Shown here one piece after another: positions 31,637 through 55,192 of a stretch of 64,000 nt of DNA. Source of the DNA: a virus; IMG/VR virus record IMGVR_UViG_3300027963_000066, positions 11,996-75,995 of that record; one strand, written 5' to 3'. The stretch's first letter is position 1. Each line of letters opens with the position of its first letter. Position numbers and translations under genes: made by a program. The notes beneath the pieces were generated by a model. The model made no database searches and was not told the DNA's origin. It saw only the letters and a list, made by a program, of their open reading frames with translations.

Positions 31637-31711
31637 TGGCCGGCCCTGCAGGAATTGAACCCACATCGCATGGTTCGAAGCCACGTATTCTATCCATTGA
31701 ACTAAGGGCCG
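31637..31711 (-). tRNA. tRNA-Arg(UCG)
   Basis: Cloverleaf, loop CTTCGAA, CCA; own TTGACT-17-TATAAT promoter at 31721-31749. Confidence 0.9.
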
Positions 31712-31945: not shown

Positions 31946-33337
31946 TTATAGAACGCTGTAGCGATCTACATCAACAGTGGCTAGCATGATACCGTATGGA
32001 GTCATGTCAGTACCACTTAGGATACCCTTCATAACTGCTGGACTAAACCCGCTAACCAACGCGGTACCGCGCTTGTCGAACTTAACAGGGACATTGTCCC
32101 GGCTGTTCAGGTTCCAGAATACAATGTTTGGAACTTCGTATCCTGCATCCTTGTACTTACGCTTGATCATTTGGTGAGCAGAGTCATCAAAACTTACGCA
32201 TTGATCAAACTGCATATCCGAAAGGATCAGCAAAGTCTTTGGCATGTCACTTGCGTTCACACCGCCCTTGACTGCGATGCGTAGGATTTCGTCAAACGCC
32301 GCATGTAGGTTAGTGTTCATGCCCCAGTCGCTAGAGTTCATTTGTGCCATCTTTTCAGATAGCGAACCCTTAACGACCTGTGCCTTTGGCTTAGCACTGA
32401 AAGTCAAGAATGTATCCTTGAATACACCTGTGTTCTTATCAGCACAGTACAGACCCAACGACAGGGCAATATCGATGCACATTAGGTTAGCGTTTCCGCC
32501 AACTGGGCATGACATCGAACCGCTAACGTCAACCAAAGGCATAACGCTGGCATCGCCAATGTAGTTTGGCAACGATGCCCATTGAGCATCTGCTACCACA
32601 CTGTCGCCACCATGACGCAAGGTCTTGATGACATCGTATGGGTAAACCGCACTAGCGTTTACCTTGTCAGTACCTGCAGTCAAACGAGCCTTGTAGGCAG
32701 TGTAAGACGCAGAAGCATTCTTGGCAAATGCCTTGTTGTAACGAGCACTGGCTAGACTTGGCAACTTACCGAATTCGATAGAATCCCAGTCCTTTGCACA
32801 CATCTTGCTTTCGACAACATTGGTCAACGCAACCAAACTCTTACGGTAGAACTTTGGAGTCATACCATAGAAGTTACGGATTTCAACCGCGATTGGGCCT
32901 TGACGAGGCATCCATTTGGCACACAGACCGTTGCGTTCACGCAGTGCATCACCGATTAGGGTATAGGCCATGTGTTTGAACTTTTCAGTCTTGAATACCA
33001 GCAAGTCGTCCCAACGGCCGAACTCGCTTACGAAAGGAAGAACTGCTTCCAGAGTTTCTGGATGCAACTTTTCCAGATGTACAAGTACATCACGGAACAG
33101 CTGACGTTCACCTGCGCCACCACGGACATCACGTGACCAGAACGCAATCTTCATTGCAAGGTCACTGTCTTCCTGGAAAGCCTTTTCGAAGTCTGCGGTC
33201 ACAGACTTACCACGGCTTGCACCAATCTTGTAGAACAAATCTACAAGGGCATTGCCCGAATGGGCCTTTGCCTTCATACCGTTTTCGGTACGAGCTACCT
33301 CTGGGGTAGACTTAACTGCTTCAGCGAAAGTGATCAT
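31946..33337 (-). CDS. DUF2828-like TROVE/vWA (Ro60-related) protein
   Basis: TENG, RDVRGGAGER, FGRWDDL, AKWMPR, MIDAS DVSGSM, ILSDMQFD, IVFWNL, LVSGFS. Confidence 0.85.
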   Translation of the reverse strand: MITFAEAVKSTPEVARTENGMKAKAHSGNALVDLFYKIGASRGKSVTADFEKAFQEDSDLAMKIAFWSRDVRGGAGERQLFRDVLVHLEKLHPETLEAVLPFVSEFGRWDDLLVFKTEKFKHMAYTLIGDALRERNGLCAKWMPRQGPIAVEIRNFYGMTPKFYRKSLVALTNVVESKMCAKDWDSIEFGKLPSLASARYNKAFAKNASASYTAYKARLTAGTDKVNASAVYPYDVIKTLRHGGDSVVADAQWASLPNYIGDASVMPLVDVSGSMSCPVGGNANLMCIDIALSLGLYCADKNTGVFKDTFLTFSAKPKAQVVKGSLSEKMAQMNSSDWGMNTNLHAAFDEILRIAVKGGVNASDMPKTLLILSDMQFDQCVSFDDSAHQMIKRKYKDAGYEVPNIVFWNLNSRDNVPVKFDKRGTALVSGFSPAVMKGILSGTDMTPYGIMLATVDVDRYSVL

Positions 33338-49447: not shown

Positions 49448-49523
49448 TGGCGTCCCGTACGAGATTCGAACTCGTGTACTCGCCGTGAAAGGGCGATATC
49501 CTAGGCCTCTAGATGAACGGGAC
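49448..49523 (-). tRNA. tRNA-Glu(UUC)
   Basis: Loop CTTTCAC, GCCA. Confidence 0.93.
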
Positions 49524-49540: not shown

Positions 49541-49613
49541 TTTTTAAAGAGCTATGACAGCTATTTCTAACTGTCTAAGTATATATTGTACTGCCATTTT
49601 ACCCTTGTGTCAA
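49541..49613 (-). promoter_or_regulatory. sigma70 promoter plus rrn-like boxB/boxA
   Basis: TTGACA-17-TACAAT (49585-49613), GACAGTTA-GAAA-TAGCTGTC hairpin, GCTCTTTAAAAA. Confidence 0.75.
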
Positions 49614-51676: not shown

Positions 51677-51750
51677 TGGCAGAGGGTAATGGAATCGAAC
51701 CATTAATAGCGGAATCAAAATCCGCTGTTATACCATTTAACTAACCCCCA
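51677..51750 (-). tRNA. tRNA-Gln(UUG)
   Basis: Loop TTTTGAT, GCCA. Confidence 0.9.
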
Positions 51751-51757
51751 ACAATAA

Positions 51758-51815
51758 AACAGGTTGCTTATTTTTCAATTAAAAGTTGAATTGGTAAATT
51801 TGCTGAACGCAACCT
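51758..51815 (-). ncRNA. CAGCAA-helix RNA copy 6 with Lys(UUU)-like anticodon arm
   Basis: AGGTTGC-GTTCAGCAA...TTCAA-CTTTTAA-TTGAA...GCAACCT-GTT. Confidence 0.75.
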
Positions 51816-51820
51816 AAAAA

Positions 51821-51912
51821 TGGAGGAAGGATGGTAGAATCGAACTCCAACCGGCTCATCACCGATCCATCTGTTTTCAAGACAGTGCCGGGCCCAGCCC
51901 AGATAACCTTCC
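51821..51912 (-). tRNA. tRNA-Ser(UGA)
   Basis: Loop CTTGAAA, long variable arm. Confidence 0.85.
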
Positions 51913-51917
51913 ATGTT

Positions 51918-51993
51918 TGGTAGTGATGGTCAGACTCGAACTGACGATAATCTCCGTATGAAGGAGGCACATTAGCCGCTATGCTACATCACT
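51918..51993 (-). tRNA. tRNA-Met(CAU)
   Basis: Loop TTCATAC, CCA. Confidence 0.85.
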
Positions 51994-51999
51994 ATAATT

Positions 52000-52073
52000 T
52001 GGTGCTCTAGTCAAGAATCGAACTTGAATTTCTACTTTACCAAAGTAGTGTTCTACCATTTAACTACAAGAGC
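52000..52073 (-). tRNA. tRNA-Thr(GGU)
   Basis: Loop TTGGTAA, CCA. Confidence 0.9.
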
Positions 52074-52079
52074 AAGATA

Positions 52080-52155
52080 TGGCGTACCGCGAGAGCCTCG
52101 AACTCCCAACCCCTGGTTTTGGAGACCAGTGCTCTGCCAATTGAGCTAGCGATAC
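52080..52155 (-). tRNA. tRNA-Trp(CCA)
   Basis: Loop CTCCAAA, GCCA. Confidence 0.9.
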
Positions 52156-52161
52156 ATAACT

Positions 52162-52235
52162 TGGTAGTTCCTGAAAGAATTGAACTTTCATCTACGCCAT
52201 GTCACGGCATTGTTCTGCCATTAAACTAAGGAACT
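52162..52235 (-). tRNA. tRNA-Val(GAC)
   Basis: Loop GTGACAT, CCA. Confidence 0.85.
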
Positions 52236-52386
52236 GAATAGATTGGGCGCCCAACTATCCTCCTGGGAAGACTCGCTGGATTGTCTCGAATAGCCAAGTC
52301 TAAGACCACTCCTAACCGTTCTTGCGCTGTCACATAGCTGAGCCACTATGCTAGGTTGGGTGGGACTCTAAACTATCGTCTATCCC
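52236..52386 (-). ncRNA. Unidentified ~150-nt structured RNA
   Basis: Closed by GGATAGA/TCTATTC; internal hairpins; lies between tRNAs. Confidence 0.5.
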
Positions 52387-52391
52387 TAAAC

Positions 52392-52467
52392 TGGCACCCC
52401 CGGAAGGAATCGAACCTCCATTCCTGCGTTCGTAGCACAGTGTATGCATCCATTATACGACAGGGGT
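52392..52467 (-). tRNA. tRNA-Arg(ACG)
   Basis: Loop CTACGAA, GCCA. Confidence 0.9.
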
Positions 52468-52474
52468 AAAATAA

Positions 52475-52538
52475 AACAGGTTCCGCTTTTGAGATCAAAT
52501 TTCGAGTTTGAGTTTTTAAAGTTTGCTGTAAGGAACCT
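52475..52538 (-). ncRNA. CAGCAA-helix RNA copy 7 with Ser(CGA)-like anticodon arm
   Basis: AGGTTCC-TTACAGCAA...TCAAA-CTCGAAA-TTTGA...GGAACCT-GTT. Confidence 0.75.
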
Positions 52539-52543
52539 AAAAC

Positions 52544-52618
52544 TGGCACCGCCGACGGGAATCGAACCCGCCTAATTCTGATCGACAGTCAGGTGAACTC
52601 CCAGAGTCCTACGACGGT
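52544..52618 (-). tRNA. tRNA-Asp(GUC)
   Basis: Loop CTGTCGA, GCCA. Confidence 0.85.
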
Positions 52619-52624
52619 ATAAAT

Positions 52625-52702
52625 TGGAAGTGCGAGTCGGATTCGAACCGACGGTTTTGCGGATTTGCAATCCACTGCATTGGGCCTCTCTGCCATCGCA
52701 CT
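52625..52702 (-). tRNA. tRNA-Cys(GCA)
   Basis: Loop TTGCAAA, U73 discriminator. Confidence 0.9.
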
Positions 52703-52714
52703 ATAATTTTATTT

Positions 52715-52789
52715 TGGTGGACCAACGGGGGATCGAACCCCGACCTCCGCGGTGCAAACGCGGCGTGCTCCCATTATCACTATCAGCCC
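52715..52789 (-). tRNA. tRNA-Ala(UGC)
   Basis: Loop TTTGCAC, G3-U70. Confidence 0.92.
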
Positions 52790-52795
52790 AAAATT

Positions 52796-52869
52796 TGGTA
52801 TCGCGTACGGGGATCGAACCCGCCTACGTAAGTTGAAAGCCTACTGACCTCCCAGAAGTCCAACGCGAT
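52796..52869 (-). tRNA. tRNA-Glu(UUC)
   Basis: Loop CTTTCAA, CCA. Confidence 0.83.
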
Positions 52870-52886
52870 ATAAAAAACTTCTTAGG

Positions 52887-52957
52887 GGTGACTATCGGGG
52901 CTCGAACCCGAACTACCAGAGTCACAGTCTAGGTTGCTACCATTACAACATAGCCAC
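52887..52957 (-). tRNA. tRNA-His(GUG), no encoded CCA
   Basis: Loop CTGTGAC, C73; flanked by a 10-bp inverted repeat. Confidence 0.85.
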
Positions 52958-52973
52958 ACCTAAGAAGTCTAAA

Positions 52974-53052
52974 TGGCTCCGCATCTGGGTAACGATCCCA
53001 GCTAATCATTGATTAACAGTCAAGTCCGTGCACCATGCTCGGATTCTGCGGA
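52974..53052 (-). tRNA. tRNA-Asn(GUU)
   Basis: Loop CTGTTAA, GCCA; atypical T-loop. Confidence 0.8.
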
Positions 53053-53063
53053 ATAGAATTGAA

Positions 53064-53261
53064 TTTGTAAGTAGTTGCACCTCTGTAATCGCAACCATTC
53101 ACCCGATTCATGCAAGTCCGGACGGGAGGAGGTAAGTCACTTGGAATACTTGACATAGGTGCTCCACTGCGTTTACGGGACTTGAACCCGTCCTACTTTT
53201 GCACTAGGTTGACCTTCGAAGAATCTTCCTAGCGAGTCTTTCTCTTGCTGACACTTACAAA
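53064..53261 (-). ncRNA. Large variant CAGCAA-helix RNA (copy 8) with internal T-arm
   Basis: TTTGTAAGT-GTCAGCAA...ACTTACAAA; internal ACGGG-TTCAAGT-CCCGT. Confidence 0.6.
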
Positions 53262-53264
53262 ACT

Positions 53265-53339
53265 TGGTAGCCACGGACAATTTCGAAATGTCGACCTATC
53301 GCTTATCAAGCGAGTGCTCTTCCTCTGAGCTACGCGGCT
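53265..53339 (-). tRNA. tRNA-Ile(GAU)
   Basis: Loop TTGATAA, CCA. Confidence 0.9.
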
Positions 53340-53343
53340 AAAT

Positions 53344-53419
53344 TGGTACACCCTGTTGGAATCGAACCAACTTCCACGGCTCTTCAGGCCGCCGCTATGA
53401 CCACATCAGCTAAAGGTGC
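53344..53419 (-). tRNA. tRNA-Phe(GAA)
   Basis: Loop CTGAAGA, CCA. Confidence 0.9.
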
Positions 53420-53426
53420 ATTAAAT

Positions 53427-53504
53427 TGGTCTCCATGGTACGATTCGAACGTACAGCCTCCTGACTCCAGATCAGGCCGTCTACCAGATTGACATTACAC
53501 AGAG
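53427..53504 (-). tRNA. tRNA-Pro(UGG), atypical C33
   Basis: Loop TCTGGAG, CCA. Confidence 0.8.
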
Positions 53505-53511
53505 ATAAAAT

Positions 53512-53600
53512 TGGTGTAGCGTGATGGAATCGAACCACTTGGCAACCACCCTGCTTGACGAGGCCTACCGGGTTACAGCCGGCAACAGGGAACACACTAC
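53512..53600 (-). tRNA. D-armless tRNA-Tyr(GUA)-like RNA
   Basis: Acceptor, anticodon arm GCCGG-CTGTAAC-CCGGT, T-arm and CCA present; D region only 10 nt. Confidence 0.75.
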
Positions 53601-53605
53601 ATATT

Positions 53606-53691
53606 TGGTGGAGGCGGATGGATTCGAACCACCGCGCTTTTTAGGGGCCAGATTTACAGTCTGGTGCAATCAACCACTCTGCCACGCCTCC
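53606..53691 (-). tRNA. tRNA-Tyr(GUA)
   Basis: Loop CTGTAAA, long variable arm, ACCA. Confidence 0.93.
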
Positions 53692-53958
53692 AATTTGTTA
53701 ACACACTCTCCGCTATGCGTTTTGACACCGTCGTAAGGTGAAAGAGAATGTGTATATTAAAACATACTAATGAAATCGCACTACCCCAGTTTCACGCTGA
53801 GTTCCCAGTAGCTACAGAGGCATTGTCCTCCTGCGAATAGTATGCTTTAATATGACGAATTTTTTTATCTACAAGAAGATAAGCCATCCTCGCCACCGCC
53901 CGTTCGCCCCATGTTTATAGTGCAGGGCGTGGTCCTCGTTACCACGTATTCACACTCG

Positions 53959-53993
53959 AAAAAACAAAACCCCAGGGTTTTTAATCCTGGGGT
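53959..53993 (-). terminator. Intrinsic terminator (attenuator) upstream of the tRNA array
   Basis: ACCCCAGG-loop-CCTGGGGT-TTTGTTTTTT. Confidence 0.85.
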
Positions 53994-54020
53994 CCTTTGG
54001 AGTTATTGTGTACTTTTGCG

Positions 54021-54161
54021 TTACACTATGGTCTCCTGGGACCCCGGGCAAATCTCTGGTGTGCGATCATAACTTGACAGATTCGCAAACCAATTAGAGG
54101 GCATAAAGCCCGCCTGTTTGGCGCTTCCTTGTGTTTGTAAATGTATCGAACAGTTTTTCAT
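54021..54161 (-). CDS. Putative attenuator leader peptide (46 aa, all 20 amino acids)
   Basis: Hand translation MKNCSIHLQTQGSAKQAGFMPSNWFANLSSYDRTPEICPGSQETIV; its 3' end holds the antiterminator strand. Confidence 0.65.
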   Translation of the reverse strand: MKNCSIHLQTQGSAKQAGFMPSNWFANLSSYDRTPEICPGSQETIV

Positions 54162-54219
54162 TTGCTTTTCCAATGTTTCCTAAAATTTCATAAACGGCAT
54201 TATTGCTGTTTATGTATCT

Positions 54220-54248
54220 ATTGTACAGTTATTTAGTTCTGCTGTCAA
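54220..54248 (-). promoter_or_regulatory. sigma70 promoter of the tRNA array
   Basis: TTGACA-17 nt-TACAAT. Confidence 0.82.
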
Positions 54249-54319
54249 CCACTATTTTAAGTTTTGAACAAAAAAGTTTGGTCTACTGTGTGAACTTCTA
54301 ACTAGTCTCTAGTATAAGT

Positions 54320-55192
54320 TTATTTAGTCTCTGTGTCAACCTTGTTGTTGTAAATGTGCCACATATCTAGGAACTCCACAACATTTTTTTCAAATCCTCT
54401 TGCGATCAACCAGTCAACTAATTTCTTCTCACTAAGTTGCGGGCTTATGCTACGCTGGTGAATGCCCAGCATTCTGGTCTGATCATGGAGGGCTATCCTT
54501 GCAAGATCCATCCTATCCACTACCTGTTCGGGCGTAAAGAAGTTTTCACACATCCTACGATCGTCTTTACAGGTATCTTTGTTGAAGTATTGGTACAGGA
54601 TAAACTCACTGGGCAACACTCCCTCATAGGTAAACAATGGGATAAGATCGTAATCACTCATGCTCCTGGCATGGGCAGTGTTTATCTTAAAAGGAGGATG
54701 CGGCCTTAGAAAAAATTCAGGTCTGGGCAGTTGGGTGTTGAATTCTATCAGTCGGCAAAAGTCTTCAATCATCTCATTGAAAGGTATGTCCAGTACCTGC
54801 TTCCATGGAATTTCTGGAAGGGCAGGGAATCCGTTGCCTTCTTGTACAGCCCATTGATCCAAATCCGTAGGTTTGATAAAAAAGTTTTTGCTGTCTAGTA
54901 TTAGATACGAATCAGTATCGACTGACCAGGATACATATATTTTGGCCAACTGTTGTTGGTACCATCCGCCCATGTCATCGTTTAATCGACAGATTTCTTC
55001 TATCGAATAGAGTTTAAGTCTATGCTTTTTATAATGCGGTTTGAGATACGACCACCATTCATGCCGTGTCATTACTCTATCTTGGATAATCACAATATGC
55101 GTACATGGCTTGTCTAAAAATAATTCAAGGCTATCTGCCTGAAGTCGCATCATTTCTTTTTCTGCATGGTATGTCACTGTGACCAGAGTCAT
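54320..55192 (-). CDS. GT-A-like (DUF6492-type) protein
   Basis: GWYQQQLAK...YLILDSKNFFIKP. Confidence 0.65.
   Translation of the reverse strand: MTLVTVTYHAEKEMMRLQADSLELFLDKPCTHIVIIQDRVMTRHEWWSYLKPHYKKHRLKLYSIEEICRLNDDMGGWYQQQLAKIYVSWSVDTDSYLILDSKNFFIKPTDLDQWAVQEGNGFPALPEIPWKQVLDIPFNEMIEDFCRLIEFNTQLPRPEFFLRPHPPFKINTAHARSMSDYDLIPLFTYEGVLPSEFILYQYFNKDTCKDDRRMCENFFTPEQVVDRMDLARIALHDQTRMLGIHQRSISPQLSEKKLVDWLIARGFEKNVVEFLDMWHIYNNKVDTETK

Follow-up and report, generated by a model that had tools for sequence, protein, structure and literature searches.

How a phage controls the transcription of its tRNA genes, and whether it could couple this transcription to decoding, is the question raised by a locus on the minus strand of a giant phage from lake water that has not been cultured. 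The common view of tRNA genes in phages is that they are expressed constitutively and either assist with codon usage or replace tRNAs cleaved by defence systems, and to our knowledge the control of their expression is largely unknown; in the literature, we came across no report of phage tRNA genes being regulated through a leader peptide. At this locus, a promoter, a short leader open reading frame (ORF) encoding all 20 amino acids and two overlapping RNA hairpins, one of them an intrinsic terminator, precede a block of tRNA genes. We consider it probable that the element is a ribosome-operated transcription attenuator which heads the first tRNA block and senses general decoding capacity. This reading rests on the anatomy of the locus and its conservation, on covariation, on selection for leader composition, on the tRNA genes found in synteny and on thermodynamic logic; the translation of the leader, the direction of the regulation and its trigger are inferred, without any experiment.

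The window, by which we mean the whole stretch of 64,000 nucleotides that was analysed, represents bases 11996-75995 of a 76-kb IMG/VR virus record. The completeness of this record was estimated at only 21%, and the phage genome is thus probably several hundred kb in size. Besides tail-fibre genes and glycosyltransferases (Pfam/PHROG annotation), the window carries 33 tRNA genes identified with ARAGORN and a few additional tRNA-like Rfam matches, covering all 20 amino acids. The stretch was also present in lake and freshwater DNA sequencing runs from several studies.

All features of the switch lie on the minus strand. The leader promoter consists of TTGACA (54248-54243) and TACAAT (54225-54220) separated by 17 nt and scored 11/12 in the promoter scan, and the start of transcription is inferred to lie at around 54213. 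An upstream promoter-like site at 54311-54339 (TTGACA-17-TATACT), which likewise scored 11/12 and overlaps the preceding gene at its end, could act as a tandem promoter, a function that is inferred only. According to the predicted fold, the leader transcript opens with a hairpin (AUAAACAGCAAUAAUGCCGUUUAU, 54189-54212), for which we infer a role in mRNA stability. The 5' untranslated region (UTR) of most relatives spans 38-66 nt and likewise starts with a hairpin; judged by eye and without a pair count, these hairpins differ in sequence and occupy the same place. For 26 loci, the -10 box is situated just 6-12 nt from the ATG, resembling a leaderless arrangement. The ribosome-binding site of the window, GGAAAAG at 54165-54171, is purine-rich and weak and lies 3 nt from the ATG, and similar purine-rich tracts precede the ATG in the relatives. 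The leader ORF itself (54021-54161, with the ATG at 54161 and the stop codon TAA at 54023-54021) has 46 codons plus the stop and encodes the peptide MKNCSIHLQTQGSAKQAGFMPSNWFANLSSYDRTPEICPGSQETIV, in which all 20 amino acids are represented.

The end of this ORF takes part in the first of two alternative hairpins. The antiterminator (53986-54050, dG -27.0) is the minimum-free-energy fold of the leader and includes three helices: P1, in which CCCGGGGUCC (54048-54039) pairs at 9/10 positions with GGACCCCAGG (53995-53986); P2, joining GGAG (54036-54033) and CUCC (54002-53999); and P3, joining GUGUA (54026-54022) and UACAC (54012-54008), with the stop codon UAA (54023-54021) at its top. The second hairpin is an intrinsic terminator (53959-53994, dG -16.2) with the stem GACCCCAGG (53994-53986) and CCUGGGGUU (53976-53968), the loop AUUAAAAAC and a U tract to 53959. 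The core of its stem is formed by ACCCCAGG (53993-53986) and CCUGGGGU (53976-53969), after which UUUUGUUUUUU extends to 53959. The 5' arm of the terminator shares the strand GGACCCCAGG with the 3' side of the antiterminator, and the two helices are mutually exclusive. That the leader folds into the antiterminator and not the terminator was accompanied by z-scores of -3.4 (259 nt) and -2.6 (106 nt) in comparison to dinucleotide shuffles. A simple terminator scan did not list the hairpin at 53959-53994, because its 9-nt loop exceeds the 3-8-nt limit of that scan. A preliminary description of the locus had placed the promoter TTGACA-17-TACAAT at 54248-54220, a 46-codon ORF at 54161-54021, a terminator with a U tract at 53993-53959 and, from 54048-54039, a 9/10 pairing extended by GGAG/CTCC and GTGTA/TACAC, while cautioning that the ribosome-binding site (GGAAAAG) is weak; every one of these elements was found on the minus strand as described, including the weakness of the site.

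The arrangement is not confined to this phage. Pattern searches of viral contigs recovered more than 140 related loci combining a near-consensus sigma-70 promoter (109/110), the leader ORF, the antiterminator and the overlapping terminator. An exact search with the 30-nt terminator yielded 45 loci and a search with the 17-mer ATGATCGYACACCAGAG at least 120, the two together providing at least 110 distinct sequences (alignment A1). A promoter site of the form TTGAC[A]-N16-18-TAnnnT was located no more than 150 nt 5' of the leader ATG in 109 of the 110 distinct related loci, and a covariance model of the switch detected a single copy at each of 100 loci and likewise a single copy in this virus record. 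Three of the relatives are on contigs of 346-383 kb that represent complete or near-complete genomes. Among GenBank phages, blastn and tblastn searches returned no member of the family, whether the query was the leader, its peptide or the 290-aa protein encoded next to it, only the tRNA-Tyr being matched, and a protein-based locus search with the neighbouring gene gave no match. Rfam contained no family for the switch at E-values up to 1 (13 kb searched) or up to 10 (571 nt searched); for 53690-54260, nothing, T-box RF00230 included, came near the Rfam gathering score, the best match having E = 1.5 and 20.5 bits against a threshold of 54. When alignment A1, made with MAFFT, was folded, only the terminator and a 4-bp GAUC:GGUC pairing appeared; the latter was not relied on, as it is without covariation.

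Both hairpins are maintained across the family. When each hairpin was folded on its own, every one of the 109 relatives formed the antiterminator (mean -27.2 kcal/mol) and essentially every one the terminator (mean -15.2 kcal/mol), and the antiterminator is the more stable of the two in every case. Based on pair counts in a model-based alignment (A4), 93.5% of antiterminator cells are paired, and changes on both sides occur in 12 of its 18 pairs. These double-sided changes amount to 161 cells compared with 34 in shuffles, none of 500 shuffles being as high, and slid controls are far lower. For the terminator, 99.3% of cells are paired over 100 relatives and the U tract is conserved. Column 130 of the alignment, on the shared strand, is CG in 55, UG in 30 and UA in 14 sequences with its terminator partner and GC in 53, AU in 39 and GU in 4 with its antiterminator partner; it covaries with both and thus represents a three-way covariation. 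Covariation in both helices, anticipated in the preliminary description, is accordingly present, and its coincidence with a whole layout recurring in more than 140 viral loci places the switch beyond chance.

The conservation pattern nevertheless calls for an alternative to be weighed, namely that a genuine switch is operated in trans by a factor that binds to the leader RNA (for example a protein of the phage or the host, a small RNA or a tRNA), with the ORF only resetting or fine-tuning it. P1 (GGGUCC/GGACCC) is near-invariant and the loop of the terminator, AYUAAAMAC, shows more conservation than is usual for terminator loops, and the two could form a binding site; a second conserved structured RNA just downstream and the weak ribosome-binding site point in the same direction. 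The invariance of the shared strand is, however, already accounted for by its serving two pairing partners, as the three-way covariation illustrates, and no T-box or other Rfam match was obtained. A trans-acting factor would further leave unexplained both the fixed position of the stop codon and the selection for 20 amino acids described below, and we regard this explanation as improbable.

A ribosome-operated attenuator would depend on the leader being read, and the leader alignment carries signs of a translated frame. Leader ORFs of relatives comprise 42-53 codons, their ATG is invariant among aligned relatives, and the frame is open in 107/107 leaders with an aligned ATG, whereas of the two remaining frames one is closed in 98 leaders and the other in 107 (open in 9 and 0, respectively). 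Gap runs between the ATG and CCAGAG are a multiple of 3 in 415/427 cases, and the stop is TAA in 105/107 leaders. Over the antiterminator, the reading frame varies among relatives and the C-terminal peptide (the last quarter) is not conserved, yet the RNA helix is kept and the stop codon is positioned at the top of the antiterminator in all relatives, regardless of frame. The first ~20 residues vary freely except in composition. A conserved frame without frame-breaking stops had been expected for related leaders, and this expectation is borne out, the ATG and the stop position being conserved as well. Translation of the leader ORF is inferred from these features and there is no experimental evidence for it.

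The composition of the leader peptides agrees with a sensor of general decoding. All 20 amino acids are present in 96/104 distinct leader peptides and 19 in the other 8, while a complete set is reached by 4.3% of random windows from the proteins of these phages and by 3.1% of draws from the leaders' own composition. Shuffling of residues within alignment columns, a test that ignores phylogeny, resulted in 24.7 +/- 3.9 complete leaders and never in more than 38 over 2000 shuffles. Cys, His, Trp and Tyr each occur in exactly one copy in 85-92% of leaders, and no clustered regulatory codon runs were found in the 104 distinct leaders, in which the rare amino acids are single-copy. Ser is enriched (5.8 per leader) and Ala is not (5.7% of residues). 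Leaders contain on average 36.0 distinct codons, compared with 28.7 +/- 2.8 in random windows of genes from the same phages.

The window leader, in which 20 amino acids are specified by 36 different codons, among them all six for Ser, matches the preliminary description, whose caveat that 36 codons are only modestly above random was too cautious, since 0.6% of random gene windows reach this number. The prediction of amino-acid diversity despite peptide divergence also holds, with heavy positional turnover underlying the high number of complete leaders. The use of all six Ser codons was rejected as a conserved feature, being present in 5/104 leaders.

Completeness might also have been inherited from a single ancestor without having been selected, in which case the element would be an ordinary terminator following a short ORF; all members are related, and the shuffle tests do not take phylogeny into account. 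Turnover within the family speaks strongly against this. Tree parsimony requires at least 47, 46 and 44 single-column gain/loss events for Cys, His and Tyr, respectively, yet the residue types are almost never lost, with only 3, 0 and 0 leaders lacking them. Cys occupies 19 different alignment columns, and Tyr switches between YW and SYDR positions. In addition, the neighbouring ORF2 of the same phages, which serves as a control, has ordinary diversity, mostly 14-18 amino-acid types with a mode of 17 and all 20 in only 2/83 cases. Inheritance alone is for us barely credible, and comparative evidence indicates that selection keeps the leader complete for all 20 amino acids.

Within the leader ORF, a further hairpin, P0 (54057-54092), is predicted, in which the Asp-Arg-Thr-Pro codons contribute UCGCA and ACCA as partners for UGG(U) at the Trp codon and for UGCGA. 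The Trp codon TGG is invariant and GATCGYACACCAGAG (Asp-Arg-Thr-Pro-Glu) near-invariant, and the two are mutually complementary. The UGG:CCA pairing is included in the minimum-free-energy fold of 87/98 leaders, with a mean dG of -12 kcal/mol and a mean z of -1.9. P0 pair counts are not above shuffles and covariation is absent, the 3' arm being invariant. P0 does not overlap region 2 of the switch. A function as a pause hairpin is plausible and possible, without support from covariation, and P0, as a constraint on the RNA, probably underlies much of the conservation seen in the peptide (W, DRTPE).

The position of a ribosome on the leader was modelled by masking a 30-nt footprint at each codon and folding the transcript up to the terminator stem. 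In the window, the antiterminator is favoured without any ribosome and with A-site codons 1-34, and the terminator with codons 35-47, including the stop; these results represent a thermodynamic model and not a measurement. From this model, the following sequence of events can be proposed. Host RNA polymerase would start at the sigma-70-type promoter and transcribe the 46-codon leader, the last ~9 codons and stop of which lie in the 5' half of the antiterminator (~-27 kcal/mol) competing with the weaker terminator (~-16). A ribosome keeping pace would reach the end of the leader and cover the 5' arm of the antiterminator, upon which the terminator could form and transcription would stop at ~53960. 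In the absence of a ribosome, or with a ribosome stalled within about the first 34 codons, the antiterminator would form and permit read-through across the downstream structured RNA (element X) into the tRNA genes. With every amino acid present, the switch would report the general supply of aminoacyl-tRNA and not that of one amino acid, and the likely outcome would be a feedback in which slow decoding leads to more phage tRNAs and fast decoding to fewer. As no anti-antiterminator is evident, an untranslated transcript would read through, so that the default state would be on, unlike in trp.

How many amino acids such a switch could sense depends on where their codons lie. The amino-acid set is complete upstream of the antiterminator core in 92/104 leaders, and in 61/104 leaders it is completed by a Glu codon only 7-12 nt before the core. 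It had been proposed that a stall at almost any earlier codon allows read-through; the model agrees for codons 1-34, but Glu and Val of the window leader are found only at codons where a stall favours the terminator, and therefore ~18 of the 20 amino acids would be sensed in the window.

The footprint model also bears on the possibility that the leader encodes a nascent arrest peptide of the TnaC, SecM or SpeFL type, answering to one specific ligand or factor and not to tRNA supply. Arrest in such peptides is often dependent on W, D and P, and in the leaders Trp is invariant and followed ~9 residues later by NDRTPE, just before the antiterminator. P0 probably accounts for these invariant codons at the RNA level, and for a ribosome stalled on the Pro or Glu codon of NDRTPE the model predicts the terminator and not read-through. 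An arrest peptide does not predict 20-amino-acid completeness, and the N-terminal 20 residues are free except in composition, which leaves us giving this possibility very little weight. The ribosome-operated switch sensing all amino acids and gating tRNAs, as originally proposed, is instead supported by the conserved ORF, both helices, the composition, the synteny and the fold under the footprint. Starvation or host anticodon nucleases as its triggers, likewise part of the original proposal, are an inference only. A more far-reaching version, in which the switch is a universal tRNA-pool sensor acting in counter-defence, such that host anticodon nucleases or phage-induced turnover, by depleting any tRNA species, cause stalling in the leader and thereby the production of replacement tRNAs until recovery turns it off, is tentative and in our judgement rather doubtful. 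If true, ~250 nt would encode closed-loop homeostasis of the entire tRNA set.

The genes under presumed control follow directly downstream. A same-strand tRNA array is found 216-990 nt past the terminator in 134/141 loci, with up to 22 tRNAs in 3 kb, and the 7 exceptions lack downstream sequence or have little of it (62-703 nt). In the window, the first tRNA block (51677-53691, minus strand; ARAGORN and extra tRNA-like Rfam matches) extends from tRNA-Tyr (53691-53606) to tRNA-Gln (51750-51677) and is presumed to be the regulated unit. The idea that the switch gates the tRNA array as a whole stands for the family-wide synteny but has to be narrowed for the window, where only this first block is downstream and the second block has its own promoter (49613-49585) and no leader.

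Between the switch and the tRNA genes, about three quarters of the loci have ORF2, which encodes 49-65 residues, has a strong ribosome-binding site and directly follows the terminator; it belongs to no Pfam or PHROG family, and no homologue of it was found in the window. An ORF followed by its own terminator and then by another well-initiated ORF could also suggest that the leader ORF (ORF1) is a functional small protein, that the upstream hairpin stabilises the 3' end of its mRNA or tunes translation termination, and that the tRNAs form the next unit; conservation of the frame and length and of the W...NDRTPE core would fit with this. The conserved core, however, coincides with P0, the C-terminal quarter shifts frame among relatives while the RNA helix stays, and the hairpin covaries with the terminator with which it has a strand in common. 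One each of Cys, His, Trp and Tyr at shifting positions has no protein-level reason, and ORF1 has no Pfam or PHROG family. Further, the promoter scan of the window identified no strong minus-strand promoter-like site within 53955-53691, between terminator and tRNAs. We find a functional small protein very unlikely and retain the attenuator heading the tRNA block as our reading.

Element X (53844-53956, minus strand) is a conserved structured RNA, identified by folding and alignment, which lies between the switch and the first tRNA and whose function is unknown. In it, AGUGU pairs with GCACU around the GGNAACGNGGNCC hairpin, followed by the ACGGGCGG segment and a covarying helix. It is present in 75 distinct loci, after the terminator or ORF2, including every ORF2-bearing locus inspected and the window. 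Of the 18 pairs that the alignment fold predicts, 9 show compensatory changes, and there was no Rfam match for element X. A boxA-like reading of GCACUWWAAACA was dropped, as GCACU pairs with AGUGU.

Among known systems, the closest working analogue is the whiB7/wblC upstream ORF (uORF) attenuator of mycobacteria and other Actinobacteria. There, stalling from many amino-acid, tRNA and synthetase defects leads to read-through, the composition of the uORF sets which shortages are sensed, and the uORF of M. smegmatis encodes 19 of the 20 amino acids; it varies between species, is enriched in Ala and lacks several amino acids in M. tuberculosis (Poulton et al., PMC10274678). Both systems have a promoter-proximal uORF followed by an antiterminator/terminator pair, and a stall anywhere in the whiB7 uORF results in read-through. 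In contrast to whiB7, which regulates a drug-resistance transcription factor of the WhiB family, the phage element precedes a tRNA array, and its leader is kept complete for 20 amino acids without Ala enrichment. No sign of sequence relatedness between the phage leader and the whiB7 uORF was seen.

The attenuators trpL, hisL, pheL and leuL and the multivalent thrL and ilvL likewise share a promoter, a short ORF, exclusive 2:3/3:4 helices and an intrinsic terminator with the phage element, as well as a stop codon at which a ribosome completing the leader prevents the antiterminator from forming. Unlike these, the phage leader has no regulatory codon runs, each amino acid occurring about once, no 1:2 anti-antiterminator is evident, and the target is tRNA genes instead of biosynthetic enzymes. 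T-box riboswitches resemble the phage switch in using a terminator/antiterminator pair that reports tRNA charging state, but they bind one uncharged tRNA directly, contain no ORF and control synthetase or biosynthesis genes. An accessory tRNA array that is turned on when translation is impaired is known from Anabaena sp. PCC 7120, whose trn operon is silent and induced by translational stress (PMC8421152, PMC10272220); unlike the phage array, it resides on a cellular megaplasmid. Its control is by a DNA-binding repressor, TrcR, at the promoter, and the paper reporting this has no 'attenuat' or 'leader' wording (PMC10272220).

If our reading is true, a compact and widespread switch couples transcription of tRNA arrays to the decoding of every amino acid, which would widen the reach of trp-type attenuation beyond a single amino acid to all of them, and beyond biosynthetic genes to the decoding machinery. 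The complete 20-amino-acid set in ~46 codons would then be a rare and clean signature of a peptide that matters by its composition and not its fold. Once confirmed, the element could be used as a natural portable sensor of overall translation capacity, as a marker for tRNA islands in metagenomic phages, and for a direct test of whether phages adjust tRNA supply to host tRNA depletion.

Small parts of the stretch were also present in six lake metatranscriptome runs. Logan contigs from four RNA runs match 53975-54076 without a difference and 54047-54280 with 2, one 49-nt RNA-run contig of very high depth sits on the terminator hairpin, and RNA-run contigs of relatives extend beyond 53958. Logan contigs do not provide transcript ends, strand or level, and DNA carry-over is possible; termination at 53960 is thus neither supported nor contradicted. 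With regard to possible hosts, bacterial and archaeal genomes representing 185,579 species contained 61 exact matches to the 17-mer, which is about the chance expectation. The covariance model confirmed one of these matches, on a 6.2-kb contig binned as Polynucleobacter.

Element X, a conserved RNA with secondary structure and a length of about 110 nt (window 53844-53956, minus strand), is situated between the attenuator and the first tRNA of the array. It is also present in related loci including L002, L007, L014, L036 and L066, and follows either the attenuator directly or, in relatives, a small open reading frame, ORF2. Its fold consists of a GGNAACGNGGNCC hairpin enclosed by an AGUGU:GCACU pairing, followed by ACGGGCGG and by a helix with compensatory changes; no match to element X was found in Rfam. 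ORF2 is located directly 3' of the terminator in approximately 108 of the 141 surveyed loci (for example L014:6000-6179, plus strand, and L007:6618-6776, minus strand) and is absent from the window. It encodes a small, conserved product of 49-65 aa with the motif ..EHTL[ST].E...K[LM]I..K.ERA, which could not be assigned to any Pfam or PHROG family, and has a strong ribosome-binding site. Expression of ORF2 would be limited to transcripts that read through the terminator.

A contig of 49 nt covering the terminator hairpin (window 53959-53997) reached a word depth of about 690 in one metatranscriptome run from a lake, compared with at most 60 on the flanks of the hairpin. This signal could originate from stable, terminated 3' ends, or it could reflect many related phages collapsing onto the same conserved 39 nt.

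A further near-consensus promoter (TTGACA-17-TATACT; window 54311-54339, minus strand) is located 91 nt upstream of the one that serves the leader. It overlaps the stop codon of the preceding gene, and the two sites may form a tandem promoter. The 5' UTR is about 52 nt long and carries a 5' hairpin in the subfamily of the window, while in another subfamily of 26 related loci (e.g. L007, L047 and L069) just 6-12 nt separate the end of the -10 box from the leader ATG downstream, and the leader mRNA would therefore be leaderless or almost leaderless. At 49585-49613 (minus strand), about 55 nt upstream of the tRNA-Glu at 49523, there is a second promoter that matches the consensus (TTGACA-17-TACAAT). 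As the tRNA block behind it has no leader ORF, the attenuator precedes the first tRNA block only.

Within the array, Rfam additionally matched three tRNA-like sequences on the minus strand (53431-53503, 53515-53601 and 51825-51912) that were missing from the ARAGORN output. One scored 31.5 bits as tRNA and two were tRNA-Sec-like with below-threshold scores of 26.6 and 45 bits; all three may represent unusual tRNAs.

The sole match in bacterial and archaeal species genomes (L196:5841-5926, plus strand) was on a 6.2-kb contig in a Polynucleobacter MAG bin; either a phage fragment was binned wrongly here, or the contig hints weakly at the host. Elsewhere in the window, a minus-strand gene (31946-33337) encodes a 463-aa protein matching PHROG 850 ("RNA-binding protein", E = 1e-150) as well as DUF2828/DUF7788, and this gene adjoins a lone tRNA-Arg (31637-31711).
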